A stretch of DNA of 64,000 bases from a plasmid, in sequence record CP089609.1; one strand, 5' to 3'. The translations under genes were made by a program, and so were the position numbers. The stretch's first letter is position 1; every line of letters begins with the position of its first letter. Below the pieces are notes generated by a model, which saw only the letters and a list, made by a program, of their open reading frames with translations, was not told the DNA's origin and searched no databases. This document shows, piece by piece, positions 20,681 to 56,560 of this stretch.

Positions 20681-21603
20681 ATGTCCACCCGCTGGTTGAG
20701 CCCCTTGCGGTACCCCGGCGGAAAAGGGCGCATGGCCGACGCGTTAGCCGACGTGTTCCAACAGCAGTTCGGTCTGCTCGACGTCGAAGTATGGGCCGAG
20801 CCATTCGCCGGCGGCGCGGGGGCCGGACTGCATCTGCTCGATCGCGGCGTCGTCGACGAGGTCTGGCTGACCGAGAGAAACCCGGCCCTGGCCGCGTTCT
20901 GGCGCACCACCACCACCAACAGCGACGAACTGGCCGCGCGGGTCCGCACATGCCAACCCGACATGTCCACCTGGCACGCCGCGCGCGAGATCGTCGCGGA
21001 GGCGCGGACTGGCGCCGAGATCGCCGATCTCGACCTCGCATTCGCCGCCCTTCTCATCAACCGGTGCTCACGTTCAGGCATGGTCAACCCCAGTGTCGGC
21101 CCGATCGGCGGCAAGAACCAGAACGGCCGCTGGCACCTTCGCTCCCGATGGAACCCCGAGGGCCTGTCCGAACGCATCGATTCGATCGGACGGCTCGGCA
21201 ACCGGATCCGCGTCAGCGAAGGAGATGCGATCACACACATCGCGGAGTTGAACGGATCGGTGGGCATTGAGCACGAGCTCCTGCTGTTCGTCGACCCGCC
21301 CTATCTGGTCCAGGGCAACAAGCTTTATCACGACGGTATGACCTTCGACGACCACAAGAACCTCGCCGAGGCACTACCAACTGCGCAGCTCGCTGGCTGC
21401 TCACCTACGACAGCGACGAACGCATCCTCGGCCTCTATCCGGGCCATCGCATCCTGGCCTACGAGATCGCCCACACCGCTAACCAGGCCCGCATCGAAGA
21501 GGAATACGCGGTCCTATCCGACAATCTCGCGGTCCGCGACGACCAAAACCTACTCACCACGGGCGCATCCCGATGGGTCCAGCACGAGCCCACGCACAAC
21601 TAG
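20681..21603 (+). CDS. Dam-like N6-adenine DNA methyltransferase (D12 class) with apparent -1 frameshift near 21385
   Basis: LRYPGGK and FVDPPY motifs in first frame; C-terminal ARWLLTYDSDERI...stop TAG 21603 in second frame. Confidence 0.6.
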
Positions 21604-21629
21604 TCCACCCCGCGAGGAAGGAAACCCGC

Positions 21630-21860
21630 ATGTCAACACCCACCGGCGACCACGAATGGACTAGCGAAGCTGTCGACGGCGCATCTCTAGTCCACCTGGC
21701 CCGCCTCGCAACGGCCGGCGACCAGACCGACATCGTCATGTACGTCCGCAGGCAGGCACACCGGCTCCGCACCCGGGCCCCACAAACGTCACAAGCGCTC
21801 ACCGCACTGATCGACGGAGCTGCCCCGCCTCCCAGCCCGCTACGTGGTGCAGCAACATGA
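21630..21860 (+). CDS. hypothetical protein (76 aa)
   Basis: GGAAGGAAA RBS then ATG 21630. Confidence 0.45.
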   Translation: MSTPTGDHEWTSEAVDGASLVHLARLATAGDQTDIVMYVRRQAHRLRTRAPQTSQALTALIDGAAPPPSPLRGAAT

Positions 21861-22177
21861 GCTCGCCGCTAACCAGGTCAGGATGGGCACTCGGCGGCCT
21901 CTCGACAGCGCTCATCTTGGCGACCTTGTCAGCGCCGATCGCCGCAGCAGCCAAGGTGGAGCCGACCCCGCCCGAGCCCTCACATTGTCGGGTACCGCTA
22001 CAGCTGATCGGCGATACGGCTGTCATGCCTCCGGATCCGCGGTTCGACTGGAGAAAGTGGCTCGACACAGCCCCAGACGATGCGGATCTCCCATGTGATC
22101 CAGACGCGGTATTCGGCGGCACCCTGCCGGCACACATGATCCCGTCATGGGTTCTCGATGAACTGCTGCGGAGATAA
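21857..22177 (+). CDS. secreted hypothetical protein (signal peptide)
   Basis: ATGA overlap with preceding gene; N-terminal signal-like segment. Confidence 0.5.
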   Translation: MSSPLTRSGWALGGLSTALILATLSAPIAAAAKVEPTPPEPSHCRVPLQLIGDTAVMPPDPRFDWRKWLDTAPDDADLPCDPDAVFGGTLPAHMIPSWVLDELLRR

Positions 22178-22219
22178 AACACCCAGTGCGCGAACACAGT
22201 TGAAAGAAAGGGACTGAAC

Positions 22220-22732
22220 ATGACGATATGGCTCATGTCTGTCGCGCTGACCACCCAGGCAGTGCGGGACCGCCAGAAAACACAAACCCGCAGAGCCGGT
22301 TGGCGGCACCTCAAAGAAGGTGATCAGCTGGCCCTGTGTCCGAAAGTTCGCGGCGTCCGCCGCGACAATCGCGAGCTGATCACCATCGTCGATGTCGTTT
22401 CAGTGCGCCGGGAGCTGCTGCGGGCGATCACAGCAGAAGACGTTGTTGCCGAAGGCTTCCCGAATCTCACCACAGCTGACTTCATCACGTTCTTCTGCGA
22501 CAGCCACCGCGGTGTCCGACCGGAATCGGAAATCACGCGCATCGAATGGGCCTATCCCCGCCTGTGTCGACAGTGCCGCTGCACGGAGTACGCCGCATGC
22601 ACAACAATCACTGGACCGTGCAGCTGGCGAACAACATATGACGACAACACCGGCATCTGCACCGCATGCACCGCTGCCGCGACCACAAGGCAACTCGATT
22701 TGTCGGAACGTCGAGGGAGGATGGGAGTATGA
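22220..22732 (+). CDS. ASCH-like domain protein with Cys-rich C-terminal tail
   Basis: KTQTRR...LKEGDQLAL resembles ASCH core; tail CRQCRCTEYAACTTITGPC...CTAC. Confidence 0.45.
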   Translation: MTIWLMSVALTTQAVRDRQKTQTRRAGWRHLKEGDQLALCPKVRGVRRDNRELITIVDVVSVRRELLRAITAEDVVAEGFPNLTTADFITFFCDSHRGVRPESEITRIEWAYPRLCRQCRCTEYAACTTITGPCSWRTTYDDNTGICTACTAAATTRQLDLSERRGRMGV

Positions 22733-23190
22733 CGAAGGAATTTGACGAGTTGCCGCCCGTTTCGGCGGCGCCGTTGTCACGAATCCGTCGCGGGTTCATC
22801 GTCGCGGAAGGGTGCGTGATTGGCCTTTTGGCGGGGACTGCGGCGGCAGTCCTCGCGCTATCAGTGGCACCGTGGGTGGTGAGGTTGATCGCGTCTGTAT
22901 CGGCGGGGGCGATCGGCGATCGACCGGCAGAGGCGGCGTCATTCAGCGGGGGCCCACCCTGGTTTATGTGGCTGACCGGAGTGGTCGTTGGCCTGTTCGG
23001 AGCCGGGATCGTTGGATTTGAGGCGATCGAGAAACGTATCGCTGAAGCCAAGCTGCGTGTGCATGTCGCCATGTACCGCAACGTCATTGAAGAACACATG
23101 CGCAGCGAAGCTGCGCTGAGAAAACCCCACGACGACTACGCCCCGAGCCAGGATGATCGCCGTCGCCCCGACGCGGTTGGCGGCGACTGA
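22729..23190 (+). CDS. membrane protein
   Basis: ATGA overlap at 22729-22732; hydrophobic helices. Confidence 0.45.
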   Translation: MTKEFDELPPVSAAPLSRIRRGFIVAEGCVIGLLAGTAAAVLALSVAPWVVRLIASVSAGAIGDRPAEAASFSGGPPWFMWLTGVVVGLFGAGIVGFEAIEKRIAEAKLRVHVAMYRNVIEEHMRSEAALRKPHDDYAPSQDDRRRPDAVGGD

Positions 23191-23277
23191 CGATTCGAGC
23201 ATAGGCAACACCTACGCCCATGACCGCCCAGCTGAACGACCACGAAATGTCAGACCTGTCCAGGAGAATTCAGACCC

Positions 23278-23775
23278 ATGAAGATTTCCAATGGCGAACC
23301 GCGGAGTGAACGGCTAATTCGAGCCCTGGCCGCTGTCGGTGGGTGCGCGATCCTCGTCGCATCTGTGCTAACGACGATCAAGCTGATCGCTTGGCTACAG
23401 GCCTCGGCTTCGGCGTTTAGCACTCTGGATGCGGCAATCGCAGCATTTGCATTGTGCGGACTGGTCACCGCCGGCTTGATCGCTCTGTACATTTTCCAAC
23501 GAGGATCAGTTGGGGCACGCCGTATCGGTGCGTTACTCACCGATACGGCACCGGGACAGGTCCTTGGCGGACTGATCGGACTTGTCCTCGCCATCGCCTC
23601 AATCTCTACCGCGGCCGCCGCCGCGCAAGGGTGGGGATCATGGTTGATATCGGTCTTGTCAGCCGTGTTCTGGGGCGCTGTGGGACTGCGCGAGCTGCGC
23701 AACGGGTGGCGCCAATGGGCATCGCGCCGCGACGACTTGCGTAATGGCCCTGCGATCGAGCGTATTCCGGAATAG
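23278..23775 (+). CDS. membrane protein (4 TM)
   Basis: 165-aa hydrophobic ORF. Confidence 0.5.
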   Translation: MKISNGEPRSERLIRALAAVGGCAILVASVLTTIKLIAWLQASASAFSTLDAAIAAFALCGLVTAGLIALYIFQRGSVGARRIGALLTDTAPGQVLGGLIGLVLAIASISTAAAAAQGWGSWLISVLSAVFWGAVGLRELRNGWRQWASRRDDLRNGPAIERIPE

Positions 23776-23833
23776 ATGGCCAAGACCACCCCGACCGCAC
23801 ACCAGCACTGGCGTTGAGAGGGAGATGATCGCT

Positions 23834-24166
23834 ATGGACGTGAACATGTTTCCCGTCATTGACAACCGCGGGCAACTAGAGGAACTCACCGGCCGCCAGG
23901 CCACGACGTCCGTCTGGACCGCAGTCGTTGTCGACCGACAAGGCGACGTGTTTGGGACGTACTTGGGCAATGGAACATGGACCGAACTGGGCTCGGCCGT
24001 CCCCTTCTGTCTGAGCGGACGGATAGCTCTGCCCGCACGCTTGGTGGCAGGCCAGGCATCCGAGCGCCCTCAGACCGCCCGCGTAACCAACGTGGCGGAA
24101 CACAAGGTCGGTCTGCCCAAGCAGCTTTCGTCGCCACAGACCGCTGACGTGTCTTTGCTCGACTGA
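23834..24166 (+). CDS. hypothetical protein
   Basis: GGGAG RBS upstream of ATG 23834. Confidence 0.4.
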   Translation: MDVNMFPVIDNRGQLEELTGRQATTSVWTAVVVDRQGDVFGTYLGNGTWTELGSAVPFCLSGRIALPARLVAGQASERPQTARVTNVAEHKVGLPKQLSSPQTADVSLLD

Positions 24167-24183
24167 GTGGATTTCAGATCCAC
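24167..24183. promoter_or_regulatory. short palindrome GTGGATttcagATCCAC
   Basis: 6-bp inverted repeat between 23834 gene stop and HTH gene; possible operator or weak terminator. Confidence 0.25.
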
Positions 24184-24297
24184 CCACAGTCACCACCTCG
24201 ATTCCCACGATCCGAACGGCTTGCAACGCCCCTGGACAGCGGCCGCAAACATGGTGTGCACACTTGTGCGGCACAACTGTGCGTAAAATCTGGGCAC

Positions 24298-25209
24298 ATG
24301 CCTGACAACTACGTCCGCGGCTTCGATCAACGAGCGGACTACCTGACCGCCACCGCCCAGCTCTACCTGAGCACTCAACAGGTCGCCGACCGTCTCGGCA
24401 TCACCCGTGACGTGCTACAGCACCAAATCCGCGACGGCGACTTCATCGCACCCGACGTCGTCGTCGGCGAACGCGGGATCCAAGGCTGGTCACCCGCTCG
24501 CATCGATGAGGTCCGCCTAGAGAGAATGGGCAACTCGGTAGACATCGACCCTGACAAGGTGTTCGCCGAACTCAACCACCTACGCGCCGCGGCCGAAACA
24601 CTTCGCGCCTACATCCGTGATGACGATCGAGCCGAGCCCATCCACCGGCTCCCATACGATCTGCACAGGCTGTGCGCGGCAATCGAAAACTCCGTCCGGG
24701 ACATGATGACCGTCCACGAGGAGTTCCTCACACAGATCGAACCTGAACGGGCTACGGGCCAACCCCGGCGCATGCCAGTCGCGTGCCAATCCCCCGACCT
24801 GATCATTCCCGACCCATCGACCAATGACCGCCTCCGGATCCATCAACTCAGCACCGCGGTAAAGGTTCTGGAGTCGGTGATTCAACAGATTCCCACGATA
24901 TTCGCGTCGAAACCTGGCCGTGAAGCCTTGCGCAAACTGCAGAACTACCGGTCCGAGATCGCCACCTATATCGACAAACTTAAGGCCCGCCCGGGCCAGC
25001 ACGACGTCGTGCGGCTACTGCAACCGTTGCCCGAGCACAGCATCGCCGCTGGCACCGAAGGCACCGTGGAGACGGTTCACGACCACAGCTACCAGAGGAA
25101 ACCACCAGCCTACGAAGTGAAATTCTCCGACTCCGACGGCGCGACACTGGCAACGGCGATCCTTGGGCCTGAAGACGTCGAAGTCACCTGGCGATGGACC
25201 GCCGTCTGA
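24298..25209 (+). CDS. HTH (Xis/MerR-like) DNA-binding protein with DUF4926-like C-terminal domain
   Basis: LYLSTQQVADRLGITRDVLQHQIRDGDF HTH; C-terminal VVRLLQPLPEH...YEVKFSDSDG. Confidence 0.5.
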   Translation: MPDNYVRGFDQRADYLTATAQLYLSTQQVADRLGITRDVLQHQIRDGDFIAPDVVVGERGIQGWSPARIDEVRLERMGNSVDIDPDKVFAELNHLRAAAETLRAYIRDDDRAEPIHRLPYDLHRLCAAIENSVRDMMTVHEEFLTQIEPERATGQPRRMPVACQSPDLIIPDPSTNDRLRIHQLSTAVKVLESVIQQIPTIFASKPGREALRKLQNYRSEIATYIDKLKARPGQHDVVRLLQPLPEHSIAAGTEGTVETVHDHSYQRKPPAYEVKFSDSDGATLATAILGPEDVEVTWRWTAV

Positions 25210-25260
25210 CCGACAAGTCCCCTTTCTCACCCCGACACTGACAATTGGATCGCCCACTGC

Positions 25261-25713: not shown

Positions 25714-25794
25714 AAGTCAGGCACCGGGCCGCCTGCCACACTGAAACGCACGGCATTGCCCCCGGCCCGCCGTTGCCGATGTTCACCTCGCCGG

Positions 25795-25944: not shown

Positions 25945-25947
25945 GAC

Positions 25948-27666: not shown

Positions 27667-28660
27667 TCAGGCGGTGGGAATAGTGCGGAGCGCGTTCATA
27701 ATTGCCGCGTTCTCCCGCGCAAAGTTGAACACAGTCGGCGGTGCCAACCATCGGCCATCATCTGGCACGTCAAGTGCGGCTGACGCGGGGCGCATCACGA
27801 GAACATGGTGAGACCCAGCCGCTCGCCCCAGCCCCACCCGGTAGCCGACATTGCCGATCAACTGACGCATATCCTCTTCGCAACGGTCACTGTCGCGAGG
27901 GTTCAACCAGGACAGGACGTGTATGCCCAGACTCGCGCGCGCCTCGGCCGAACCTATCCGCTCCAGGGGAAACATGGAGCTCGCGACGCCGCGGCCGACC
28001 GGTGCATCGATGATCGCCACCAAATCTGGCAACACCGGCGCGTCCGGGGCAGGTCGGCTTGCCTGTACGCGCCGATGCTGTCCACGCAATATGCGGCCAG
28101 AATGTCTTGGCGCCGTTGATACTCGCACCGGAGCACCTCACCGAGCTCATCGACAATCGGCGATACTCCCGCTCCAAACGGATCGTCGGCGCTCGGGGTG
28201 CGCATCCAATGCTGCAGAACGTGAGGCAGTCCCGTCGGCAGGTCCGCAAAAGTGCCCTGTCCAAACGCGTCTAGATCCGCCAGCAGTAGATTGACCCGCT
28301 TCGGGAGTACTGCAAGCAGAGCGCCGCCGCGGCGGCGGCGAGGAGAGTGCTTTTGCCGAGACCCCCACAACCTCCAGCAACGAGGCCGAAGATCAAGCCA
28401 GGTACCCCGACGGTGACCACGGCCCCGTCTTCGTCGTAGCCCACCGGGATCTGCAACTCTGAGTCGTGCTCATGGGTCCGCCAGACACCGGCGGGGTCGA
28501 AACCTCTGGTAGTGATACCGAGAGCTTCAGCGAAGCTGGGCACGATGGACGTCCGAGTGACAGCTCGGGCTGCATCGCGATATTCGCCGCCATACTTGGC
28601 TTGGTGGGCACGCGCGGCTTCTTTGCGGGCATTGTTTCGCTGGCGGGGATGATTGGTCAC
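27667..28660 (-). CDS. ParA/MinD-superfamily P-loop ATPase, reading frame split over three frames (two apparent 1-nt indels)
   Basis: P-loop GGCGGLGKST (frame 1), LLADLDAFGQ (frame 2), DLVAIIDAPVGRG (frame 3); GTG 28660 preceded by GGAGG. Confidence 0.5.
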
Positions 28661-29213: not shown

Positions 29214-30628
29214 GTGGTTACCAAGGGCCCGGAACTGGTCATCGGTCTCGTCGCACCGCTGGGCACGAGCACCACCGAACTCGCCACCGAAGTCAAAGGC
29301 GCACTGGCGGCGTACGGCTACAAGCCGGTCATCATCAAGATGTCTGACCTGATACCCGGATCCGGCCCGCTCGGTGAAGCAGAAGATGACCGGATCCGCC
29401 GGCTTATCGCTGCCGGCAATGCCTTCTGCAAAGCAAACGACGATGACCCGGCCGCCCTGGCCCGGCTCGCTATCAACAGAATCCGCGCCAGCCGCATCGA
29501 CCTGCTACGCCAAACCGGCGATACCCGTCCCACCGAGGACCTGGTCATCGGTGGCCGGCCACGCACCGCCTACATCATCCAGTCACTCAAGCGGCTCGAC
29601 GAAGTCCAGCTTCTGCGCGAGGTCTACGGCAGCCAGTTCATCCTCCTGGGCAGCCAGGGCACCCTCGAACAGCGCACCGCCAGCCTGATGCGGTTGAGCC
29701 TGTCCTCGCTGCCCGAATCCAGCCGCCGTGATCTGGTCAAACTCCTGATTCAGGTCGACGCCAAAGACGACGACCCGCTCGGACAGAACGTCAACGCCAC
29801 CTACCCGCAAGCCGACTTCTTCATCCGCAACAACGCCCGCAGTGAGATCGACAGGGCGATCGGGCTGCTGTTCGGAGCTTCCATCGCACCCGAGATCGGT
29901 GAATTCGCGATGTATGTGGCCCGGGCCAGCCGCGCCCGTTCCCTGGCCGCCAGCCGCAAGGTCGGCGCAGCGATCGTCGTCGGCGACGCAGTCGTTGCCA
30001 CCGGCTACAACGACGTCCCCACGGCCAGGAGGCCGACATTCTCGAAGGCGTCGACACCAGTGAACAGTTCAAACGCGACAACCTCTCAGACACTCTCCGA
30101 CGTCTCAAGTCCGCCGGCATGCTCAACGACGCCGTGACCATCGACGAGGCCGCCGTCTCCGCGGCCGCGGCCGCTCTCAAAGGTGGAGACCTGCTGAGCG
30201 TGATCGAATACCAGCGCGCCGTCCACGCCGAGGCCAGAGCCATCGACGACGCCACCATCCGCGGCGTCTCCACCGTCGACGGCATCCTCTACGTCACCAC
30301 CTTCCCGTGCCATCTCTGCTACAAGCACGCCCTGTCGGCACGGATCAAACGCGTCGAATACATCGACCCCTATCCCAAGAGCCGAGCCGTCCAGATGTAC
30401 CCCGTGGATGTCGAAGAACGACTCATCCCGTTCACCGGCGTCGCACCACGCCGCTACTTGGAGATTTTCGACGACCGCCCCGCACCCCAATCGGACGAAT
30501 CAGGGAGATTCCCCACACACGACCCGAGCGTCGCACAGCCACTTGTCGGACCCGTGAGCGAAGATGACAGCCGAGCCGACAAAGAACGCCGCGCGATCCA
30601 CCGGTTGAAGGAGCAGTACCGAACATGA
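29214..30628 (+). CDS. kinase-like N-terminal domain fused to cytidine/deoxycytidylate deaminase domain (dCTP-deaminase-type antiphage protein candidate); apparent -1 frameshift in CCCC run at 30017-30020
   Basis: deaminase zinc motifs HAEARAI and PCHLC; N-terminal deaminase segment KVGAAIVVGDAVVATGYND lies in upstream frame; adding one C restores continuous ORF. Confidence 0.6.
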
Positions 30629-39135: not shown

Positions 39136-39722
39136 ATTTGAAGGATTGGGCGCTGGCGCAGGGCATCCACCCGCAGACGGCATACAAGATGTTCCGCGAC
39201 GGAACGTTGCCAGTTCCTGCGCAACGGGTAGGGCCGCGGCTGATCCTGGTGAACCCTGAAGGCGTCGCGGCGACGCCAACCGAGGGCGTTGGGCTCTACG
39301 CCCGGGTCTCCTCACACGACCAGAAGGACGATCTGGCACGGCAGACAGCCAGGCTCAACGCGTGGGCTGTGCAGGCCGGCCATCGTGTTGTCCGCAGTGA
39401 AGCCGAGGTGGGTTCGGGGATGAACGGTGCGCGGGCAAAGGCGCGCCGACTGTTGTCGGACCCCGAGGTTACGGTCGTGGTCGTGGAGCACCGCGACCGG
39501 CTCGGGCGGATGAATACCGAACTTGTGGAGGCGGCGCTGTCGGCGTCCGGTCGTCGTCTGGTGGTGCTCGATGACGGCGAAGTCGACGACGATCTGGTGC
39601 GCGACATCACCGAGGTGCTGACGTCGTTCTGTGCCCGACTGTACGGCCGCCGCTCAGCCAAGAATCGAGCCAAGCGGGCGTTGGAGTGTGCGGCCGGGTC
39701 TGATGGTGGCACGTCGGCGTGA
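39132..39722 (+). CDS. tnpA: IS607-family serine recombinase transposase (MerR-like HTH + resolvase domain)
   Basis: N-terminal HTH; resolvase catalytic region GLYARVSSHDQKDDLARQ. Confidence 0.8.
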   Translation: MNLKDWALAQGIHPQTAYKMFRDGTLPVPAQRVGPRLILVNPEGVAATPTEGVGLYARVSSHDQKDDLARQTARLNAWAVQAGHRVVRSEAEVGSGMNGARAKARRLLSDPEVTVVVVEHRDRLGRMNTELVEAALSASGRRLVVLDDGEVDDDLVRDITEVLTSFCARLYGRRSAKNRAKRALECAAGSDGGTSA

Positions 39723-41310
39723 ATGCTCTGGCACGCAACACGTCCGGGCTGCGGCCGATCGCCGACCCGTTCGTTGTCGCGCCCCGAAAGGTGTGCGGAC
39801 CCGCACCCGGGTCCATCTCACACCGCGGGAAGAGGCGGTGCTCGAACAGATCGGCGTGTTCTTAGGTGAGCAGTACCGGGCCACTTTGGTTGATCGGATC
39901 GCGCTGGGGGCAGCCACGAAGAAAGACCAGGGCGTGTGGCGGCAGGTGCGTAAGCAGGCCCTCACCGCGAGCACGTCATCGCGGTGGGCCGGAGCGATCA
40001 CCCGCACCGCTATCGACTCCTACGACTTGGGCATGCGCGGGCTGAACGCTCACGTCGACTCGTTGACCGCCGCGGTCTCGACCTTGAGCGCCCGGCTAGC
40101 CGTACCTGTGGGTGACACGTCGCGCGAGGCGAATCGTCCCCGCACCAAGCCGGTTCGGGGCTATGCGACCGAGGCAGAGCGGTTTGGCAAGTCGCGCCGC
40201 AAGGCCCACCTAGAAGCGCGTCTGGCGCAAGCCTGGGCCCGTCAGGAGCAGGGGCGGCCCCGCATCGTTGTTGGTGGTGGCCGGTTGTGGCGCAACCGTC
40301 AGAATCTTGGCGAGACGTCGATGACTCTTGCTCAGTGGGAGAAGCGCTGGACTGAGGAGCGGATGTTCCTGACCGCTGATGGGGAGTCCGGCAAGCGTTT
40401 TGGCAACGAGACCATCCGTGTCACCGATGAGGGCGTACTCATGCTCAAGGTGCCCGGAGCCTTGGTGGCCGAGCACGGGACGACCCGGCTCACGATTACC
40501 GCACCGGTATCCCTGAACACCCATCGCGGTGGTGAGTGGGCTGATCGGATCGTCGCCGACCGGGCCGTACGGTACGACCTACACCGCGACCCGCGGGGAC
40601 GCTGGTACCTCGACGCGTCCTGGGGCTACGCCCAGGCCCCCGCCGTGCCGTTGGCCTCGCTGCGCACCCAGCGCACGCTCGGCGTGGATCTCAACGACGG
40701 GCACATCGATGTCGCCGTGGTTGATCCACACGGCAACGTCATCGGCATTCCCCAGCGGCTGGAGTTCACCCTCACCGGTGGCACCGCCCGCCGCGACGCC
40801 CAAGTCCGCCACGTCATCACTCGCCTGATCCGCCTGGCCACCGAGCATGGCTGCGCATCGATCAGCATCGAGAACCTCGGATTCGACGAGGCCCGCAACA
40901 CTGGCCGGGAAACCATGGGCCGCGGCCGGCGAGGCAAACGGTTCCGCCGCACCGTCGCGGGCATTCCGACCGCCACATTTCGCAATCGGCTCGCCGCGAT
41001 GGCGGCCACCGCTGGGCTGTCGGTGATCGCTGTCGACCCTGCCTACACCTCCCGATGGGGACGCCAGCATTGGCTACCCGCACTGCAGACTTCCGACCCG
41101 ACCATCGACGGCCACCGCGCCGCCGCGGTTGTGATCGGCAGGAGAAGCCTCGGCCACCGCGCCCGGCGCAAGCCTGTCGGACCCGTCACGCGACAGAGGA
41201 CGCGCGACGGCCAGCCGGCCAGGCCAGCCACACGGCGACCGACGCCTTCTCGCTCGCGTGTCACCGCAACGCCGAAGGCGCACGACGCCGCAGGCCCACC
41301 GGACCGATAG
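39703..41310 (+). CDS. tnpB: TnpB (OrfB) RuvC-like RNA-guided nuclease family protein
   Basis: RuvC-I LGVDLNDGHIDVAVV, RuvC-III VIAVDPAYTSRW, Arg-rich zinc-finger region; overlaps tnpA. Confidence 0.8.
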   Translation: MVARRRECSGTQHVRAAADRRPVRCRAPKGVRTRTRVHLTPREEAVLEQIGVFLGEQYRATLVDRIALGAATKKDQGVWRQVRKQALTASTSSRWAGAITRTAIDSYDLGMRGLNAHVDSLTAAVSTLSARLAVPVGDTSREANRPRTKPVRGYATEAERFGKSRRKAHLEARLAQAWARQEQGRPRIVVGGGRLWRNRQNLGETSMTLAQWEKRWTEERMFLTADGESGKRFGNETIRVTDEGVLMLKVPGALVAEHGTTRLTITAPVSLNTHRGGEWADRIVADRAVRYDLHRDPRGRWYLDASWGYAQAPAVPLASLRTQRTLGVDLNDGHIDVAVVDPHGNVIGIPQRLEFTLTGGTARRDAQVRHVITRLIRLATEHGCASISIENLGFDEARNTGRETMGRGRRGKRFRRTVAGIPTATFRNRLAAMAATAGLSVIAVDPAYTSRWGRQHWLPALQTSDPTIDGHRAAAVVIGRRSLGHRARRKPVGPVTRQRTRDGQPARPATRRPTPSRSRVTATPKAHDAAGPPDR

Positions 41311-44162: not shown

Positions 44163-44951
44163 TTAGACGGTGGTGCTGGACATCGATCGGTTCTTGATGT
44201 GCGCGGAGACGATGAACAGGGTCAGGGCACCGAAGAACGGCCCTGTCATGAGGCCGTCGATCCAGTTTTGGGTTCGTTCGGCGGTCATGAGTCCGTCGGC
44301 CACGGCGTGTTCGCAGACGTCGCGGAAGCCGAGAATTTTGTCGGCTTCGATTGCGTCGGTCCAGTGCGCCGTCACGGGATAGATCGAGTCGACGCTGAGT
44401 CCGGCCTCGTCGAGCAGCCGCGGCAAGGCCCTGCCGATCGTGGCATTGCGGATGACTTGCGCGACGACATGTCGGGTGTAGGAGTTGCTGAAGGCGGTGT
44501 CGGGGTGATCGATGACTAGCGTTGCCCAGTCCGGTTCGACGCAGACGATGCGGCCTTCGGATTTCAGGGTCCGGGCGGCTTCGGCGAGCACGGTGGGCGG
44601 CGTATGCACGTGTTGAAGGACGCGGTCGATGTGGACGCGGTCCACCGTGCCGGCTTCCAGGGGCAGCTGGTGGATGTCGGCCTGGACGGTCGACACCGTG
44701 GGTAGGTGGTTCGTGGAGTTCCCAGCATGGTTCAGAAGGGACTGGTCCTCGTCGATGCCGATCACTTTCCCGGTGCGGCCGGCGGCATCGGCGTAGGCGC
44801 GCAGATCCACTCCGGCGCCGCATCCGAGATCGACCACCACGTCTCCCTGTCGGATATCGAGTAGGGATTTCGCAAAGGCTTTGTAGCTTTTGCCTGTGGC
44901 CGAGTTGGCGATGTTTCGGAGGTAGTCACTGGGGGCGCCACGTCCAACCAT
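44163..44951 (-). CDS. class I SAM-dependent methyltransferase
   Basis: motif I VVDLGCGAGVD; type-11 MTase layout. Confidence 0.65.
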   Translation of the reverse strand: MVGRGAPSDYLRNIANSATGKSYKAFAKSLLDIRQGDVVVDLGCGAGVDLRAYADAAGRTGKVIGIDEDQSLLNHAGNSTNHLPTVSTVQADIHQLPLEAGTVDRVHIDRVLQHVHTPPTVLAEAARTLKSEGRIVCVEPDWATLVIDHPDTAFSNSYTRHVVAQVIRNATIGRALPRLLDEAGLSVDSIYPVTAHWTDAIEADKILGFRDVCEHAVADGLMTAERTQNWIDGLMTGPFFGALTLFIVSAHIKNRSMSSTTV

Positions 44952-45064
44952 GGCCGGAACTGCGGTGGTTCCGTCAATGTCATCGTGCGCCTTTCATCTG
45001 AAGGGGTAGAGCTGGTTTTTCTTCTGCAGCGCATGATGATTCGGTGGTCGTCATCAGGGCCATG

Positions 45065-45864
45065 TCATTGCGGGTGGGCATGATCGTCACCGCCCCGAGT
45101 GCTTAATTGGTTCGCGCATCGGTGCTGCCGTCCTGCTCGGGAATTTCCGAGGGGGGGTGTGTCGATCAGATACTTCTGGAAGAAGGCGAAGGTTCGCTGC
45201 CAGGCGTCCTCGGCTTCGGGTGCCGAATAGGCGAATCCGGCAAGGGTTTCGACGATGGTGAACGGTGCGGGGATGCCCGACTTGTTCATGAAGCTGTGCC
45301 CGACGTTCGGGTATTCCTTGATGTCGCGATCGACGGAGCCTTTGGCCAGGACGGCCTCCAGCGCGCTGGCCGAGCCCTGTTTGACGATGCGGTCCTTGGC
45401 GCCGTAGCTGGCTACGACAGGGCATGAACGGGCTAGTGCATCAATGTTTTTGGGAGCCAGTCCGTATTGGGCTGCGGCCACGTCGAAGAGTCCTCGTGGC
45501 GAGAGTTGAAGGACGAAGCCGGCGCCCATGCAGAATCCGATCAGCCCGATCCGGCCGTTGCACCGGGGGTCGTCGAGCAGGTGGTTGCGCGCGGCGGTGA
45601 TGTCGTCGTAGGCATTGCCGTCATCGGCGAAGTGGGACCGAATGGTGGTGATCATGCACCTGGGTTTGAACCCTCGCCCGTACAGGTCGGGGCCAGAGCG
45701 AGATACCCTTCGCCGGCGAGGCGGTCGCTGATGCGCCGCAGATCCGCTGTCATTCCCCGCACGTCCTGGACGACCACGACGCCGGGCCAGGGCCCATCGC
45801 CTGAGGGTGTTGCCAGATACCCCGGCAAAGCGCCCGCCGGGGCCATGTAGGTGATGTTCGGCAT
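45065..45864 (-). CDS. dienelactone hydrolase-family alpha/beta hydrolase; apparent -1 frameshift in GGGG run 45689-45692
   Basis: N-terminal MPNITYMAPAG...LALAP in one frame, DLYGRGF...GFCMGAGF nucleophile motif...HSF in the other. Confidence 0.6.
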
Positions 45865-48137: not shown

Positions 48138-50290
48138 ATGCAGACCGCTTACACCGCACGAGTTCTCGACCCAACCCAGCCCGGCGACAACGCCCTGCTC
48201 GACGAGCTCCGCGCCGACCCGACATCGACTTCCTCGACGACCACGACGCCCAGCTGGAAAGTCTGCGCGCACTTCGCCCCGCACCGCCCGAGGAGCTGCT
48301 GGGCGAAGATCGACGATGGGCCTACTACCCGTGGCGGCGTGCAGTCGTGGCTGTGCTCGGCCCGCGGGGATTTCAGGCATTGCGGCTCGATCGCAATCGC
48401 AACAACATCACGGCTGAAGAGCAAACCAGGCTCAGCACTCTGACGATTGGTGTGGCTGGTCTCAGCGTGGGCCACGTCATCGCCCACACGCTGGCCGCCC
48501 AAGGGCTCTGCGGCAAACTGCGCCTGGCTGACTTCGATCACCTGGAGCTGTCCAATCTCAACCGGGTGCCGGCCACGGTCTTCGACCTTGGCATCAACAA
48601 GGCCGTCGTCGCGGCCCGCAGAATCGCCGAGCTCGACCCCTACCTACCCGTCGAGGTGGTCGACACCGGCCTCAACGCCGACACACTCGACGACTTCCTC
48701 ACCGGACTCGACATCGCCGTCGAGGAATGCGATTCCCTCGACATCAAAGCCCTGCTGCGCGTCGCAGCCCGCGACCGCAAGATCCCGGTGCTCATGGCCA
48801 CCAGCGACCGCGGCATCGTCGACGTCGAACGATTCGACCAAGAACCCGAGCGCCCGATCCTGCACGGACTGCTCGGGCAACTCGACATTGATCTTCTGCC
48901 CGGCATGACCAGCCGCGAAAAGATCCCCCACGTGCTGCGTCATCTGGAAGCCGAACGCCTGTCGCCCCGCACCGCAGCATCCCTCATCGAGATCGACCGC
49001 TCCCTGTCCACCTGGCCACAGCTGGCTTCCGACGTCATCATCGGCGCGGCCGCGATCGCCGAAGCTGTACGCAGAATCGGACTCGGCGAAGAACTCCGAT
49101 CCGGCCGCAGCCGCATCGACGTCAGCTGGGCGCTGGGCCAGATCCACGAGCCCGACATGGCGCATCGCTACGAAACGACCACCGACGAGCCGAACACCCC
49201 ACAGGCTCTCACCGGCGGCCCACTCGAACACCTCGCTACAGCCGCCATGCGCGCGCCTTCCGGCGGCAACACTCAGCCCTGGCAGATCGCTCTCACCGAA
49301 GACTCCATCACGGTCGGTATCGACCCCGACCACACCTCGACCATGGACATTGAGTTCCGCGGCAGCGCCGTCGCCCTGGGTGCAGCACTGCTGAACATCA
49401 CGATCGCGGCCGCCGAACACCACGTGCTCGGCCCCATTACGGTCACCGATGCCGGCAGAGCGCCGCTGCAGGCCACTATGCGCACCACCGCCGGCGGCGA
49501 CGATCCCGCACTCGCGCGCCTTTACAAGCCCATGCTGGCGCGCGAATCCAACCGCCACCACGGGACCCCCAAGCCGCTCGACGACACCACCATCACAGCG
49601 CTCACCGCGGTGGCCGAACAGCACAACGCACGGCTGCGCCTTCTCACCCAGCGTGACGACATCGCCCAGGCCGCAACGATCCTCGCTGCGGCCGACCGGA
49701 TACGATTCCTGACCCCACGCCTACACCAGGAGATGATCTCCGAGCTTCGCTGGCCCGGCGACCCGGACCCCGACACGGGCATCGATGTCCGCAGCCTCGA
49801 ATTCGATCCCGGCGAGATGGCCGTCCTCGATGTCCTACGTCGCCCCGACGTCATGGAACAACTCGCCGAATGGGACGCCGGATCCGCACTCGGCGACGAC
49901 ATGCGAGACCGCGTCCTGGCCAGCTCAGCTCTCGCGGTCGTCACCGTAACCGGCAACGACCTACGCGCCTACGCCGCGGGCGGGTCAGCAGTCGAAGCCG
50001 TATGGATCGCCGCTCAACAACAAGGATTCGGCGTCCAGCCGGTATCCCCAGTCTTCCTCTACGCACACACACAAGCCGAACTCGAGGAACTCTCCGCGCC
50101 CTTCGCGACCGAATTGGCCGAATTGCAAAGCGAATTCAACATTCTGACGAACCTGGGACCAGACGAATCGATCGCCCTGATTCTGCGGCTGGCCGTCGCA
50201 CCGCCGGCATCGCTACCGAGCCGACGCAACATCAGCCGAGTACGTAGCGCAACGACAACAACCCACCCACTCTCCAAGGGACCTTGGTGA
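48138..50290 (+). CDS. ThiF/MoeB-like E1 domain fused to nitroreductase-like domain (MoeY-like); apparent -1 frameshift in CCC run 48218-48220
   Basis: Rossmann LTIGVAGLSVGHVIAHTLAAQG; nitroreductase-like SGGNTQPW; N-terminal 26 codons in frame 0 then frame 2. Confidence 0.6.
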
Positions 50291-51312: not shown

Positions 51313-51723
51313 ATGGAAGACGGAACGTCTTGCAGTGACGAAGATCAGGTCCGCGCCGCCGCCCTCCAAGCCGCCCGGCGAATCGCCAGCAACCGCATCA
51401 CGAACCGTCTCACCGCAGCCGGCATGACGCTGCCAGGCGACGCCGAAGACATCACCGCAGTGCTGCTCGCCGCAGACCCCACCAACCCCCAGTGGGGCGC
51501 ACTGTCTGCATACCGACTCGACTGGACCCTGGACGTGCTGTCCCTCATCTCCAACGCCCTCGTCGAACGGCGCCGCCAGCGCATCCGCACACCCGACGTC
51601 GACGCGGTAGCAGCCGCCGGAGAAGCCGGCGCAACGTGGAAACAGATCGGCGAATCCGTCGGCTCTGCCCCGCAGTCGCCCACAGCCGATACCGCCAGCG
51701 CCTCTGACCCTCCAGCGCAATGA
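51313..51723 (+). CDS. hypothetical protein
   Basis: 136-aa ORF after a ~590-bp lower-GC non-coding region. Confidence 0.4.
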   Translation: MEDGTSCSDEDQVRAAALQAARRIASNRITNRLTAAGMTLPGDAEDITAVLLAADPTNPQWGALSAYRLDWTLDVLSLISNALVERRRQRIRTPDVDAVAAAGEAGATWKQIGESVGSAPQSPTADTASASDPPAQ

Positions 51724-52184: not shown

Positions 52185-52233
52185 ATTCACTGCGCGAACA
52201 CCGAACAGGCGTCAGCCCGCTACGCTTCACACC

Positions 52234-52911
52234 ATGTCAGACGTCATGGATTGGGACGCCGCCTACCGCGGCCACATCTTCGCCGGCCCTCCCCCATGGA
52301 ACATCGGCAAACCCCAACCCGCGATCGCCAACCTCATCGCCACCGGCCAGGTCCAAGACCCCGTCCTCGACGCGGGCTGCGGCATCGGCGATCTCACCAT
52401 CGCACTCGCGCAAGCCGGCCACACTGTCACCGGCATCGACATCTCCACCGAAGCCATCACCCACGCCACCCAACAAGCCAGCGACCTCGGCCTCACCGCC
52501 CGATTCATCCAAGGCGACGCGCGCGACCTGGCCGCTCTCGGCCTGGGCGAACCTCAGTTCAACACTGTTATCGACTGCACCCTGTTTCACTCGCTGCCCC
52601 TCGACGCGCGCGACGACTACCTTCGCGGCATCTCCACTGCAACCAATCCTGGCGGGCGCCTCTACCTCCTGGTGTTCACCACCGACTCGCTGCCGGTCGA
52701 TTCGCCCTGCCCTGTGCCCAACCTGGTGACCGAAGCCGAAGTCCGCGACGCCGTCGCCAAGCACTGGACCGTCGACACCATCGACCCCTCCCACGTCGCG
52801 GTCCGACTTCCCGACATCCCCAACCTTCCCGAACACAACTTCCGCACCGACGCAGACGGCCTCACCTACCTACCAGCCCTGTTCCTCACCGCCCACACGC
52901 CGACCCCGTGA
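52234..52911 (+). CDS. class I SAM-dependent methyltransferase (TPMT/TehB-like)
   Basis: motif I VLDAGCGIGDLT. Confidence 0.65.
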   Translation: MSDVMDWDAAYRGHIFAGPPPWNIGKPQPAIANLIATGQVQDPVLDAGCGIGDLTIALAQAGHTVTGIDISTEAITHATQQASDLGLTARFIQGDARDLAALGLGEPQFNTVIDCTLFHSLPLDARDDYLRGISTATNPGGRLYLLVFTTDSLPVDSPCPVPNLVTEAEVRDAVAKHWTVDTIDPSHVAVRLPDIPNLPEHNFRTDADGLTYLPALFLTAHTPTP

Positions 52912-52977
52912 CCGCGCTGCGCGGTATCCGGACTGGGCACGCCCTATGCGAACTCGACCTGATTCCCGGTGGCCCGG

Positions 52978-53286
52978 TTAGAGAACCTCGCCGCGGGCCA
53001 TCTCCATGTACGACGCGAGCGCGCCGGCGGGCAAGCCGTCGTCATTGAGCCAGCCAATGCGTTGAAACTTGGCGTGGATCCGTCTCTGCGTTGCGATGTT
53101 GAGCGGTATCCACGCTGTTGGGACGGCGATGTTGGCCTTGATCACTCGGAAGAGCCACCGCCATTCCATCGCGGTGAGTTCGTCGTCGCTGGCTTTGATG
53201 CGCCGTTGTTCGTCGCGCCATTGTCGGTAGCTGTCGTTGGTCGTGCCGCTGTTGTAGATGACGGTCATAGGATGATGGTGCGCCAC
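52978..53286 (-). CDS. hypothetical protein
   Basis: 102-aa ORF; operator copy 10 lies 53 bp upstream. Confidence 0.4.
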   Translation of the reverse strand: MAHHHPMTVIYNSGTTNDSYRQWRDEQRRIKASDDELTAMEWRWLFRVIKANIAVPTAWIPLNIATQRRIHAKFQRIGWLNDDGLPAGALASYMEMARGEVL

Positions 53287-53338
53287 AGGTGTGACATCCG
53301 ACGCCGGATGTTCCCCTGCCGGCGCTCGCGTCGAACCC

Positions 53339-53360
53339 GATACACCGCATCAGGTGTATC
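53339..53360. promoter_or_regulatory. palindromic operator copy 10 (GATACACCgcatcaGGTGTATC)
   Basis: 8-bp arms. Confidence 0.55.
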
Positions 53361-53372
53361 TACTTCGGTAGT

Positions 53373-53697
53373 CATCCATCACCACCACCCGCTGCCCGAA
53401 TACCCGCGTCACGCAATCCGCGAAGAAGACCCAGTTGGGCCTCGATATCGGCGACGGGGCCTGCGGACAACAGGTATCTCTCCGAGACACCGAAGAACCT
53501 CGCGATGGCGCTCAGCTCCGCAGTGGTCGGGTCGGTCTTGTCCCCGAGCGCAACGCCTCCAAGTCCTCCACACCGATATGCACGCCGCTCTGGTCGGATA
53601 TCGCCTCAGCGGCAGCACGCGTCGACACGGGAGGTTCGCCACGCTTGTGCATGACCTCGAACAGCCGATTGATCTTCGTCGCGTGGCTCACCGTCAC
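53373..53697 (-). CDS. XRE-family HTH regulator; apparent -1 frameshift in CCCC run 53542-53545
   Basis: HTH VSTRAAAEAISDQSGVHIGVEDLEALRSG in one frame, C-terminal TTAELSAIARFFGVSERYLL in the next. Confidence 0.5.
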
Positions 53698-53768
53698 CTC
53701 TCCCGATTCGACCCCCGCGCTGACTTTCCCCTCGAGCCTAGCCGTAGCTGTTTCGATTCTTGCGAATT

Positions 53769-54250
53769 ATGATTGGCGGTATGGGCATCACCGCAGATCA
53801 AACGATCCTGCCCCGGACGTCGATTCGAGCAGCCAAGCTCTGCTCGACAAACTCGCCGACCTTCTCAACGGCGATGCCGAGGTGTCACTGACCACCGCAG
53901 ACGGACGTTCCGTCACGCTCCCCGAGGAGCTGCGCGCGGTCCTGGCACACGCTGACGCAGCCCTCAGCCAGGGACAAGCCGTTACCGTCGAACCACGCCG
54001 CGTAGTTCTGTCCACACAAGAAGCCGCCGACATTCTCGGCGTCTCACGACCAACACTGATCAAGCTGCTCGAATCGGGTGATATCCCATTCACCAAACCC
54101 AACAGACACCGCCGCCTACTCCTGGCCGACGTCCTCACCTACCAGCAACAAGTCCACACCCAACGCAGCACCATCCTGTCCGAGATGAGTGCTGAGGCCG
54201 CAGAACACGACGCCTACGGGAAACTCTCCGAGTTCACCGAAACCCGTTGA
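53769..54250 (+). CDS. Xis/MerR-type HTH antitoxin (VapB-like partner of PIN gene); apparent -1 frameshift in CCCC run 53811-53814
   Basis: C-terminal LSTQEAADILGVSRPTLIKLLESGDIPFTKPNRHRRL HTH; stop overlaps PIN gene start. Confidence 0.55.
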
Positions 54251-55251
54251 CCGTGACCAAGATCCGCGTCCTCCTGGACGCATGTGTCCTCGTGCCCTAT
54301 CAGTTGGCCGATCTGCTCATGCGCCTGTCCGACGACGAACTCTACGAACTGCTCTGGTCGCAGCAGATCCTCACCGAAGTCGGACGCAACCTCGTCAAAC
54401 TCGACGTCCCACCAGAGAAGGCAGCTCGACGCATTTCCCAAATGCGCGCCGCGTTCCCACACGCCGTAGTCGACGGCTACGAGGATCTCATCGACGCGAT
54501 GCGAGTCGATCCGAAAGACCGCCACGTGGCTGCGGCCGCGGTCCGCGGCGGCGCCGCCATAATCGTGACCGCCAACCTCAAAGACTTTCCACCAAATACA
54601 TTGGCACCCTACGATATTGAGCCTGTCCACCCCGACGAATTCCTACTTGATCAGCTCGACCTGGCCGAACAATCGACGATCGAATGCCTCCAGAACCATC
54701 GCACCGCCTACACACGGCCTGCCTTCACGATCACCGAGTACTACCTGGCCCTGGCCAGGACCGTCCCCAAGTTCGCAGCAGCCGCGAGCCGAGCTGAGAT
54801 ACGGTTCGGCGGGTGGCCGACCGCCGGCCCACTGCCGATCGAAACCGACCCAAGCGAATCCGGCGCGGCCGCACTCTTCGAAACAGCCGGACCACCTGGG
54901 ACAACACCGATGAGCGCTGCAGCAATTTGGTTCACCGCCCTCAATGATCGCGCGCAATCCGCCGACGTCCTGGCCGCCCTGACTCTCAACCCCGCCCTCT
55001 GGGGGAAATTCGAGACCGCCGCCAACATGCTCGCTGGCTGCGGCCTGGCCAACATCGTTGAACGCTGCCCCGGACACGACGACATCCGCTACCTCAAATT
55101 CGTTCCCCACATCGAACAGTCGGGACGCGCATTCACCACTGTCGCACTGGAAAACGCCAGGATCCTCACCATGGTGTTGCGCCCAGACGGCATCTGGCGA
55201 GCCTGGGGCCTGACCGAGCACTTTCCAGATGCCCGCGACATCAAGAGCTGA
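54247..55251 (+). CDS. PIN-domain (VapC-like) protein with long C-terminal extension
   Basis: VLLDACVLVP N-terminus and DRHVAAAAVRGGAAIIVTANLKDF PIN C-terminal motif. Confidence 0.7.
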   Translation: MTVTKIRVLLDACVLVPYQLADLLMRLSDDELYELLWSQQILTEVGRNLVKLDVPPEKAARRISQMRAAFPHAVVDGYEDLIDAMRVDPKDRHVAAAAVRGGAAIIVTANLKDFPPNTLAPYDIEPVHPDEFLLDQLDLAEQSTIECLQNHRTAYTRPAFTITEYYLALARTVPKFAAAASRAEIRFGGWPTAGPLPIETDPSESGAAALFETAGPPGTTPMSAAAIWFTALNDRAQSADVLAALTLNPALWGKFETAANMLAGCGLANIVERCPGHDDIRYLKFVPHIEQSGRAFTTVALENARILTMVLRPDGIWRAWGLTEHFPDARDIKS

Positions 55252-55295
55252 CGAACCGTCCGGGATCAACGCCGCGGCCGGCAGGCCGACGGCTC

Positions 55296-55586
55296 TCAAT
55301 CCAGTGACGGGGCTGGCTCGACGCGCAGAATCCGGATATCTCCCGGGCGTTCGCCGGTAGTCCAGAGAACCATCCAGCTCGCACCGTCATCGATATCGAC
55401 GACTCTGCCCCACACGGTGGGCGTTCCGGTGAACTGGCTGGCGCCGACACGGTGCCGCTCAGGGGAGAGCTCCAGCTGGCTGAGGATGGTTTTGACCGCG
55501 GCCAGGACTGCCCGTTCGTAGCGGTTGGAACTCGCAGACAACGTGGTCAGGCGATCGGCAGCCTCGGGCGTGAACGTGAGCGGCAT
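55296..55586 (-). CDS. possible RelE/ParE-like toxin
   Basis: C-terminal VWGRVVDIDDGASWMVLWTTGERPGDIRILRV resembles RelE/ParE core; tentative. Confidence 0.35.
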   Translation of the reverse strand: MPLTFTPEAADRLTTLSASSNRYERAVLAAVKTILSQLELSPERHRVGASQFTGTPTVWGRVVDIDDGASWMVLWTTGERPGDIRILRVEPAPSLD

Positions 55587-55759
55587 CAGTGGTTGAACCT
55601 TTCGTCCGGCCGAGGCAATGGCCACACTACACGCCAGACACCTTTTTGCCGATTCCCCTATTTAGGCATTACCCCTATAAGGCGAATTGGACCTATACTA
55701 GAAGCCAAATCCACTCACACGCCGACACCGACCCAAACACCGAGAACACAGGAATCCCC

Positions 55760-55996
55760 ATGACCAACCTGGTCAAGATCGACGCCCAACGCCGCATCAC
55801 CCTCCCCAAAACCGCCACCACCCACGACCTCTACATGATCGACACCAGCTCCGACGGCACCATCACCCTCACCCCCGCCATCGTCCGCTCAGCACTCGAA
55901 GACGCCCTCCGCGCCAAGCCCGGCTACATGGAAGCCCTCGAACGCGACGCCACCGACCCCAGCCGCGACGTGTCGCTGGACTGGAAAAGCCTGTGA
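55760..55996 (+). CDS. AbrB/MazE-like (looped-hinge-helix) antitoxin-type protein
   Basis: LVKIDAQRRITLPK SpoVT/AbrB signature; AGGAA RBS. Confidence 0.5.
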   Translation: MTNLVKIDAQRRITLPKTATTHDLYMIDTSSDGTITLTPAIVRSALEDALRAKPGYMEALERDATDPSRDVSLDWKSL

Positions 55997-56160
55997 ACCT
56001 CACAACCCGGGCTTGACCCCGCCCTCCCAGACGAGGGTTGCGCCCCCAACCACGCCAAACGTGCACCACGACCAAGACGTCTTGGGAGTAGGCCGATTGG
56101 ACAGGTCAGTACCGCTCAGCGCCCGGCCAACCTTCAGAAGTTGGCGATGGGAGATCTCAT

Positions 56161-56560
56161 TCAGCGATGGCGATCACGCCACCGCGGCAACCCCATTTTG
56201 TAGGCCCGATCAACCTGGTCCATCTCACCAACGATGGCATCCACGCGTGCACGCCGCTCAGGATCCTCGAGTGCCTTAGCAAGGCGGTCATTACCGCGAA
56301 TGAAGGACTCAGCCATTTCGATCCTCCTCCGATTGAATCTGATACTTCCACTTGCCGATCGCATCGTCGGCGCGACCTGTCGTAAAACACGTCACCCATA
56401 CGCGCCTTGTCGCCGGCGAACAGGGCGACGACCCGGCTATCGTCGGCAAACCACACGATCATCCGGATCGCGATATCCAGGCCTCCTGGCCCGACTCGAC
56501 CTATCTTCTGGCGAACACCGCTGAATCGTTCGGATCGCTCGACTCAATGACCAGCACTTT
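56161..56560 (-). CDS. RelE/ParE-family toxin-antitoxin module remnant: frame-broken toxin (IRMIVWFADDSRVVALFAGDKARMGDVFYD) followed by small antitoxin-like ORF 56161..56316 (MAESFIRGNDRLAKALEDPERRARVD)
   Basis: toxin-like segment needs two 1-nt corrections; GGAGGAGG RBS before antitoxin ATG; TA-style overlap in a third frame. Confidence 0.35.

Follow-up and report, generated by a model that had tools for sequence, protein, structure and literature searches.

How should one read a stretch of plasmid DNA in which gene after gene appears to be broken by the loss of a single base, mostly within a run of C or G? The question is raised by a window of 64,000 nucleotides (the whole stretch of DNA that was analysed), which a record match identifies as part of a 220,108-bp Mycolicibacterium fortuitum plasmid record carrying the locus tags LT337_*. 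An earlier note, made from the letters of the window, had listed ten sites in at least ten genes, ascribed each to one missing base, and taken the pattern for a systematic under-calling of homopolymers that bears on how every pseudogene in the window is interpreted. Three-frame translations confirm that the reading frame is broken at every place it named, and the issue is whether the breaks reside in the plasmid or in its record. A literature search retrieved no paper on the LT337 assembly or on the platform used to sequence it.

The window was compared with contigs of 24 other public samples, comprising Logan assemblies and two ENA metagenome assemblies, to which it is 99.9–100% identical across positions 1–57467. 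These contigs derive from different studies and from at least three types of assembler (Logan, and contigs whose NODE_ and k119_ names are typical of SPAdes and MEGAHIT, respectively). The segment between 57.5 and 64 kb is comparable only to one relative, which is 92–95% identical; against a comparator of no more than this identity the segment yields a lone one-base candidate, which is intergenic (61660, C3 versus C4), and its remaining indels are 3 or 4 bases each. Plasmids in PLSDB, a collection without the source record, gave partial matches only, at 80–91% identity (M. abscessus, M. farcinogenes and M. dioxanotrophicus), and megablast of positions 1–25 kb found no match among phage records. 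Within the GTDB representative genomes neither the exact pattern around 30017 (with C4 or C5 allowed) nor a scan with the 804-aa protein returned anything. A GC3 frame plot in 120-nt windows was too noisy to locate the frame breaks, and direct comparison was used instead.

Relative to the independent contigs the window carries 13 one-base deletions of its own, all of them in runs of C or G (Table 1). At each of these sites the longer run is present in every covering sample (1 to 11 samples per site, with the sites at 44931 and 45689 backed by one independent sample each), and among the comparison samples themselves all 366 G/C runs of at least 4 bases are constant in length. Eleven of the 13 sites are coding and break ten genes, the other two being intergenic. 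Position 39710 has one more private gap, paired with another at 39712 within a cluster of substitutions.

Table 1. Private one-base contractions and shared gene lesions in the window. For contractions the strand is that of the affected gene, and the number of independent samples with the longer run is given in brackets.
Position	Strand	Feature	Run in window	Run in independent samples	Gene affected or remark
18568..18570	+	contraction	G3	G4 (4)	341-aa hypothetical gene (18073-19097), broken at codon 166
20681..21603	+	D12-class (Dam) DNA adenine methylase pseudogene			one base missing at 21379/21380
24229..24232		contraction	C4	C5 (8)	intergenic or extreme 5' end of DUF4926 gene
25759..25763		contraction	C5	C6 (10)	intergenic
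28046..28049	-	contraction	G4	G5 (11)	FtsK/SpoIIIE-family gene (27667-28660), broken at codon 206
28303..28305	-	contraction	G3	G4 (11)	FtsK/SpoIIIE-family gene (27667-28660), broken at codon 120
30017..30020	+	contraction	C4	C5 (9)	471-aa dCMP/cytidine-deaminase-domain gene (29214-30628), broken at codon 268, inside PF00383
39782..39785	+	contraction	C4	C5 (10)	530-aa TnpB-like gene of an IS607-like unit (39719-41310), broken at codon 22
44931..44935	-	contraction	G5	G6 (single covering sample)	273-aa SAM methyltransferase gene (44163-44983), broken at codon 18
45689..45692	-	contraction	G4	G5 (single covering sample)	266-aa dienelactone hydrolase gene (45065-45864), broken at codon 59, inside PF01738
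48218..48220	+	contraction	C3	C4 (3)	717-aa ThiF-nitroreductase (Rv1355c-type) gene (48138-50290), broken at codon 27
51668..51671	+	contraction	C4	C5 (6)	131-aa hypothetical gene (51313-51707), broken at codon 119
53542..53545	-	contraction	C4	C5 (8, including two ENA metagenome assemblies)	106-aa gene (53372-53691), broken at codon 51
53811..53814	+	contraction	C4	C5 (5)	160-aa HTH_17 gene (53769-54250), broken at codon 15
56161..56316	-	truncated XRE-family antitoxin remnant			51-aa ORF matching only residues ~8-47 of a ~120-aa partner
56327..56477	-	toxin-type gene remnant			C-terminal ~55 residues (~75-129) of a ~130-aa toxin recognisable

The frequency of contraction depends on the true length of the run: none of the 26,353 runs of 1–3 bases is shortened, as compared to 3 of 305 runs of 4 bases, 8 of 57 runs of 5 bases and 2 of the 3 runs of 6 bases, and the sole G7 run of the compared region (45151–45157) is not shortened. 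A/T runs are barely tested by the window, which contains only nine of 5 bases and none longer. All 13 changes shorten the run and none lengthens it; with equal odds for either direction such an outcome has a chance of 2^-13. The same DNA (two recombinant patches left out) holds only 5 private substitutions as against the 13 deletions. No motif common to the 13 run contexts, such as a methylation site, was evident by eye. Along the window the contractions are clustered, affecting 0 of 116 G/C runs of at least 4 bases in 1–18 kb and 13 of 226 in 18–54 kb (Fisher p = 0.006); the even spread along the assembly that a systematic bias predicts was not found.

Re-insertion of one base per site restores all ten genes. 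The translations of eight are then 100% identical to those of other assemblies, a ninth differs from them by a single substitution, and the TnpB-like gene regains its open 530-aa frame with 97.5% identity; the Pfam domains FtsK_SpoIIIE, dCMP_cyt_deam_1 and DLH continue across the break. The broken 307-aa deaminase product exists on one contig only (UHJ58795.1, the 220,108-bp plasmid), while the intact 471-aa protein is encoded on 14 contigs and has close relatives in M. conceptionense and Mycobacterium sp. SWH-M3. The 331-aa protein that had been labelled 'ParA-like' gives no match to a ParA-type profile when intact, its sole Pfam match being PF01580 FtsK_SpoIIIE with 31 bits (cutoff 24), and for the 106-aa gene the HTH/XRE assignment is sub-threshold only. 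An intact PIN_3/VapC50_C toxin gene (54247–55251) begins within the HTH_17 gene, which thereby occupies the position of an antitoxin.

Comparison with orthologous loci, which the earlier note had proposed as a check, strongly backs under-calling at seven of its ten sites, at exactly the runs that it named (28046, 28303, 30017, 45689, 48218, 53542 and 53811), and here one added base does restore a protein that is 100% identical to its counterpart in other assemblies. The remaining three, one in the Dam gene and two in a 'RelE-like' toxin gene, are of a different nature, and the list lacked six contractions (18568, 24229, 25759, 39782, 44931 and 51668). The count of broken genes is borne out in that about ten carry private deletions, albeit not the same ten. 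The same comparison strongly backs under-calling at these six as well. The claim of a systematic under-calling is nonetheless too wide, in that the distribution is uneven (0/116 versus 13/226) and the Dam and toxin lesions are shared by other assemblies.

Taken together, the 13 contractions are very probably homopolymer-length errors of the consensus, whereas the Dam and toxin lesions are genuine and ordinary; from the comparison of assemblies we infer that base calling or consensus building is the cause, rather than mutation. In the segment from 18.5 to 53.8 kb, 13 runs of 4–6 C or G would have been written one base short, as the usual residual error of a consensus derived from homopolymer-error-prone reads (presumably nanopore, PacBio CLR or flow-based) that did not undergo effective polishing, and ten intact genes would thereby take on the appearance of pseudogenes. 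Most of the errors that remain in long-read data are indels in homopolymers, which cause frameshifts and raise the number of apparent pseudogenes (PMC8011154; PMC12007338). The long-read and flow-based errors addressed by Homopolish (PMC8011154) and Kastor (PMC12007338) resemble those of the window in several respects: they are one-base indels limited to homopolymers and dependent on run length, they have the same effects on frames and on pseudogene counts, and they are corrected by comparison with close relatives. The window differs from this class of error in that G/C runs only are affected, by deletions only and in runs as short as 4 bases, and in that the errors are limited to 18–54 kb. 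The uneven spread is a sign of coverage or polishing that varied along the assembly, either of which might account for the gap in 1–18 kb, and not of a uniform bias of the base caller. The pattern furthermore seems blind to selection because intergenic DNA is also affected and the gene in the antitoxin position is cut at codon 15; a living plasmid is not expected to tolerate such a truncation beside an intact PIN toxin.

Alternatively, the 13 contractions could be real slipped-strand mutations of the isolate, through which ten genes were inactivated by relaxed selection or phase variation, a reading that we regard as very unlikely. Mycobacteria have no MutS/MutL repair, which would favour slippage, as would error-prone polymerases of the DinB type. 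Homopolymer frameshifts are indeed a documented and fast mutational class in mycobacteria, with elevated slippage (PMC10334774); a 7G tract in M. smegmatis mutates at 3.14e-8 per generation, roughly 100-fold faster than substitutions arise (PMC10334774), and a further report describes frameshift mutagenesis linked to DinB2 (PMC10159617). The clustering in 18–54 kb could likewise mark a region under relaxed selection. A precedent is the phase variation of mycobacterial tracts, including the 7C tract of glpK and the tract upstream of espA (PMC10334774), where one-base changes in G/C length also switch genes off. However, these documented tracts are at least 7 bases long, change in both directions and recur independently in many isolates, whereas the affected runs of the window, at 4–6 bases, fall below the tracts of at least 7 bases that are treated as phase-variable (PMC10334774), undergo contraction only, and are private to one record while 24 samples are invariant. 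Neither a sufficiently long tract nor recurrent two-way change among isolates (homoplasy) is found at the affected sites, and the only G7 tract compared is unchanged. Real mutation would moreover place 13 out of 13 deletions on one branch with no run-length polymorphism in the 24 other samples. The indel to substitution ratio is observed to be 13:5, where about 0.6 would be expected over 57 kb according to our own calculation from the 100-fold figure, in which all 366 runs slip at the 7G rate. Finally, one contraction truncates the antitoxin-position gene beside its intact toxin, and two are intergenic.

The chances are slimmer still that −1 slippage, such as a polymerase might drive, struck short G/C runs in a burst that silenced ten genes in a 35-kb segment and left the neighbouring 18 kb untouched. 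If true, this would amount to a localised and directional form of homopolymer mutagenesis, acting on tracts below the lengths for which phase variation is known.

Could consensus error, conversely, explain all ten breaks listed earlier, including those in the Dam and 'RelE-like' toxin genes, as one artefact? This is highly improbable. The Dam break does equal one missing base in comparison with an intact homologue, a 308-aa Dam on an M. farcinogenes plasmid that has one extra base relative to the window, reading GCGCTCACC where the window has GCACT-ACC, and residues 11–254 of the repaired protein match PF02086. However, there is no homopolymer at this place, the lesion is identical in two independent assemblies aligned across the break (L007 and L009), none of the covering assemblies has an indel relative to the window at this point, and the frameshifted 327-aa ORF is also found on 14 Logan contigs. 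Since it is common to independent assemblies and lies outside a homopolymer, the lesion marks a genuine pseudogene, carried by the whole plasmid lineage. Programmed frameshifting at the Dam break was considered and rejected, as the site has no slippery or repeat context.

The toxin region similarly shows no indel relative to L027 and L028, the two independent samples with coverage there. The remnant has lost the N-terminal part (~74 residues) that its homologues possess, and its one verifiable break, near 56350–56375, is of the +1/−2 type rather than −1; the notion of one missing base at each site therefore stands for the seven C/G-run sites and for Dam and falls for the toxin remnant, which the addition of one base does not mend. 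Its homologues, found by tblastn against plasmids, are annotated as hypothetical proteins, and in their intact form comprise a ~130-aa gene upstream of a ~120-aa XRE gene on plasmids of Gordonia and M. gilvum. In a search for a RelE/ParE/Gp49-type profile the conceptual toxin product matched no Pfam family at E <= 1, and the 'RelE-like' label finds no backing. The 51-aa antitoxin remnant is without its HTH part and is called identically in independent assemblies. Being common to independent assemblies, the toxin lesion is real, and the toxin/XRE remnant is a case of genuine inherited decay. The Dam gene and the toxin/XRE remnant (both of whose genes are truncated) thus behave like ordinary plasmid pseudogenes and decayed toxin–antitoxin modules, and under-calling explains neither of them.

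That the window is right and short-read assemblers over-called the runs in all other assemblies, a view for which no support was found and which was considered as the comparison is one of assembly with assembly, is effectively refuted because the independent samples, as many as 11 at a site and produced by three or more types of assembler, agree with one another at each site and the longer versions yield open frames, that is, intact, Pfam-matching genes with intact orthologues in the NCBI records of other species.

Consensus error at the 13 contractions is an ordinary problem of data quality; the finding is chiefly one of quality control and implies no new biology. The public plasmid record apparently contains a consensus error roughly every 3 kb over 35 kb, and its apparent pseudogenes and truncated 'hypothetical proteins' (for example UHJ58795.1) include the deaminase, the FtsK-like ATPase, the ThiF-nitroreductase and the gene in the antitoxin position. 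Wholesale repair of the record would also be wrong because the lesions of Dam and of the toxin remnant are real, and use of the record as it stands would distort pseudogene counts, pangenome analysis and inventories of defence or toxin–antitoxin systems.

Comparison with independently assembled copies of the same element revealed 13 one-base deletions private to the window, and the longer run is found in every covering sample (see the table). The comparison contigs, recovered by exact-protein look-ups from 24 other public samples, are 99.9-100% identical to the window over 1-57467; between 1 and 11 samples span each deletion site, with one apiece at 44931 and 45689. Matches in the plasmid database are partial only and all to mycobacterial plasmids, whereas exact-protein look-ups assign the window to a GenBank record for a Mycolicibacterium fortuitum plasmid of 220,108 bp (locus tags LT337_*, proteins UHJ58xxx). 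The earlier note had attributed at least ten broken genes to missing bases and proposed such a comparison with orthologous loci as a check; seven of its sites fall exactly among the 13 private deletions and three do not (Dam and two in a ‘RelE-like’ region), while six of the 13 had escaped it.

Run lengths at private and candidate sites, and other located features of the window
Feature	Position	Window	Other assemblies
Private deletion	18568	G3	G4
Private deletion	24229	C4	C5
Private deletion	25759	C5	C6
Private deletion	28046	G4	G5
Private deletion	28303	G3	G4
Private deletion	30017	C4	C5
Private deletion	39782	C4	C5
Private deletion	44931	G5	G6
Private deletion	45689	G4	G5
Private deletion	48218	C3	C4
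Private deletion	51668	C4	C5
Private deletion	53542	C4	C5
Private deletion	53811	C4	C5
Private insertion	1551	AAA	AA (6 samples)
Candidate contraction	61660	CCC	CCCC (L027)
Short tandem repeat, ~24 nt	58200-58400		
MazF-like pair	59998-60611		

All 13 private run-length deletions are contractions, and their frequency rises with the run length in the independent assemblies: contractions affect 0 of 26,353 G/C runs of 1-3 bases, 3/305 runs of 4, 8/57 of 5 and 2/3 of 6. No A/T run in the window is shortened, though only nine A/T runs reach 5 bases. The window's G+C content is 61-68%. Among the other 24 samples no variation in G/C-run length was seen, and the indel polymorphisms consist of a CG/CGCG repeat (22536-22537), a T/TT variant at 24362 and two A-run variants, nothing else; the first two are natural, and T/TT shortens the DUF4926 gene call from 303 aa to 265. 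Leaving out two recombinant patches, the window has five private substitutions to set against the 13 deletions. The sole private insertion, an additional A 88 nt upstream of an 804-aa gene, may be genuine variation or may itself be an error.

The contractions are unevenly spread, affecting 0/116 G/C runs of at least 4 bases in 1-18 kb (17 of them of length 5) versus 13/226 in 18-54 kb (Fisher p = 0.006). Uneven depth might account for this clustering, as might polishing that failed in places where short reads map more than once.

Eleven of the 13 sites lie in ten genes and two are intergenic. The FtsK/SpoIIIE gene contains two sites; one each is found in genes for a 341-aa hypothetical protein, a 471-aa dCMP-deaminase-domain protein, a 530-aa TnpB-like protein, a SAM methyltransferase, a dienelactone hydrolase, a 717-aa ThiF-nitroreductase, a 131-aa hypothetical protein, a 106-aa weakly HTH-like protein and a 160-aa HTH_17 protein, the last placed where an antitoxin would be, upstream of a PIN_3/VapC50_C gene that is intact. 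When one base was put back at each of the 13 sites and the translations were set against the other assemblies, eight of the ten genes translated identically and one differed by a single residue, whilst the TnpB-like gene, which meets a stop at codon 49 in the window, was opened over 530 aa, at 97.5% identity. The truncated 307-aa deaminase product (29214-30137) is exactly UHJ58795.1 and is found on one contig only, the 220,108-bp plasmid record; the intact deaminase is present on 14 contigs, and M. conceptionense and Mycobacterium sp. SWH-M3 have close relatives of it.

Around the TnpB-like gene, ~80 window-private substitutions (39257-41300) are limited to this gene and the 3' end of the adjoining serine-recombinase (Resolvase) gene. 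The two form an IS607-like unit of which the window has a different allele, and this suggests recombination or replacement by another copy.

Three-frame translations confirm the frame breaks where the earlier note had placed them, and the direction of the switch agrees with a single missing base in the Dam gene (near 21380), at both switches in the minus-strand gene at 27.7-28.7 kb and in the deaminase gene (30017). The 27.7-28.7 kb gene, previously labelled ParA-like, encodes an FtsK/SpoIIIE-family ATPase (PF01580).

Three of the sites reported earlier, at two loci, do not fit homopolymer under-calling. Relative to the intact 308-aa Dam of an M. farcinogenes plasmid, the window is one base short at 21379/21380 (GCACT-ACC vs GCGCTCACC), outside any homopolymer, and the PF02086 match of the repaired protein spans the junction. 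Comparison contigs L007 and L009 match the window exactly here, no assembly covering the site has an indel, and the 327-aa frameshifted ORF recurs on 14 Logan contigs; the Dam gene is a true pseudogene that the plasmid lineage has inherited. The conceptual product of the ‘RelE-like’ region has no Pfam match, and its tblastn matches are hypothetical proteins of ~130 aa that precede XRE regulators on plasmids of Gordonia, Rhodococcus and Mycolicibacterium. Only toxin residues ~75-129 and XRE-partner residues ~8-47 survive in the window, the break that can be verified is a +1/-2 one, adding one base does not mend the region, and no indel separates it from the two independent samples covering it. 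It is a genuine decayed module.

The last 6.5 kb were compared with one relative only, at 92-95% identity, where the single candidate contraction (61660), ~40 nt ahead of an XRE-type gene, may be a fourteenth, judged against a 93%-identical stretch of contig L027; the remaining indels, of 3 or 4 bases, are typical of natural divergence. Identity to the otherwise near-identical contig SRR29068369_2 falls to 92-95% past 57467, with 3-base in-frame indels and ~0.9 kb of additional DNA at 60442-61349, which marks a mosaic boundary in the backbone of the plasmid. The tandem repeat beyond it was seen in ORF translations (HLQYDIIL, VVLKVEDD, three times). Elsewhere, sample SRR29068369 carries an IS110-family insertion (DEDD_Tnp_IS110/Transposase_20, 408 aa; L007 1415-2919) at ~19576, which neither the window nor the other samples have. 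Toxin-antitoxin and defence-type genes are dense in 1-57000 and the upstream flank in contig L001, including HipA with an HTH partner, Gp49/HTH_37, an RNB-domain gene, the 471-aa deaminase with its long N-terminal extension, PIN_3/VapC50_C with its HTH_17 partner and Fic; the MazF-like pair at 59998-60611 belongs to this group.

Published work describes residual long-read errors as a source of frameshifts and of inflated pseudogene counts (PMC8011154; PMC12007338). The best explanation of the 13 contractions is that the consensus of a single assembly retained uncorrected errors in homopolymer length. Five of their features fit the published description: a single direction, run-length dependence, restriction to one record, indifference to coding and exact reparability. 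Real slippage in a genus without MutS/MutL repair deserves mention, since mycobacterial frameshifts at a 7G tract arise ~100 times faster than substitutions (PMC10334774); the tracts in that study are, however, 7 bases or longer, compared with 4-6 in the window, where the sole comparable G7 tract is unchanged. Even if each of the 366 runs of at least 4 bases slipped at the 7G rate, the calculated indel:substitution ratio would be ~0.6 against an observed 13:5, and all 13 indels share one direction on one branch. A truncated gene in the antitoxin position beside an intact toxin would also argue against a living configuration. The earlier observation is accurate for the most part, and the interpretation given to it is correct at most sites. 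What it describes is no biological feature but an assembly artefact together with two ordinary pseudogenes, and its practical use lies in caution over the plasmid record and against indiscriminate repair of all breaks.
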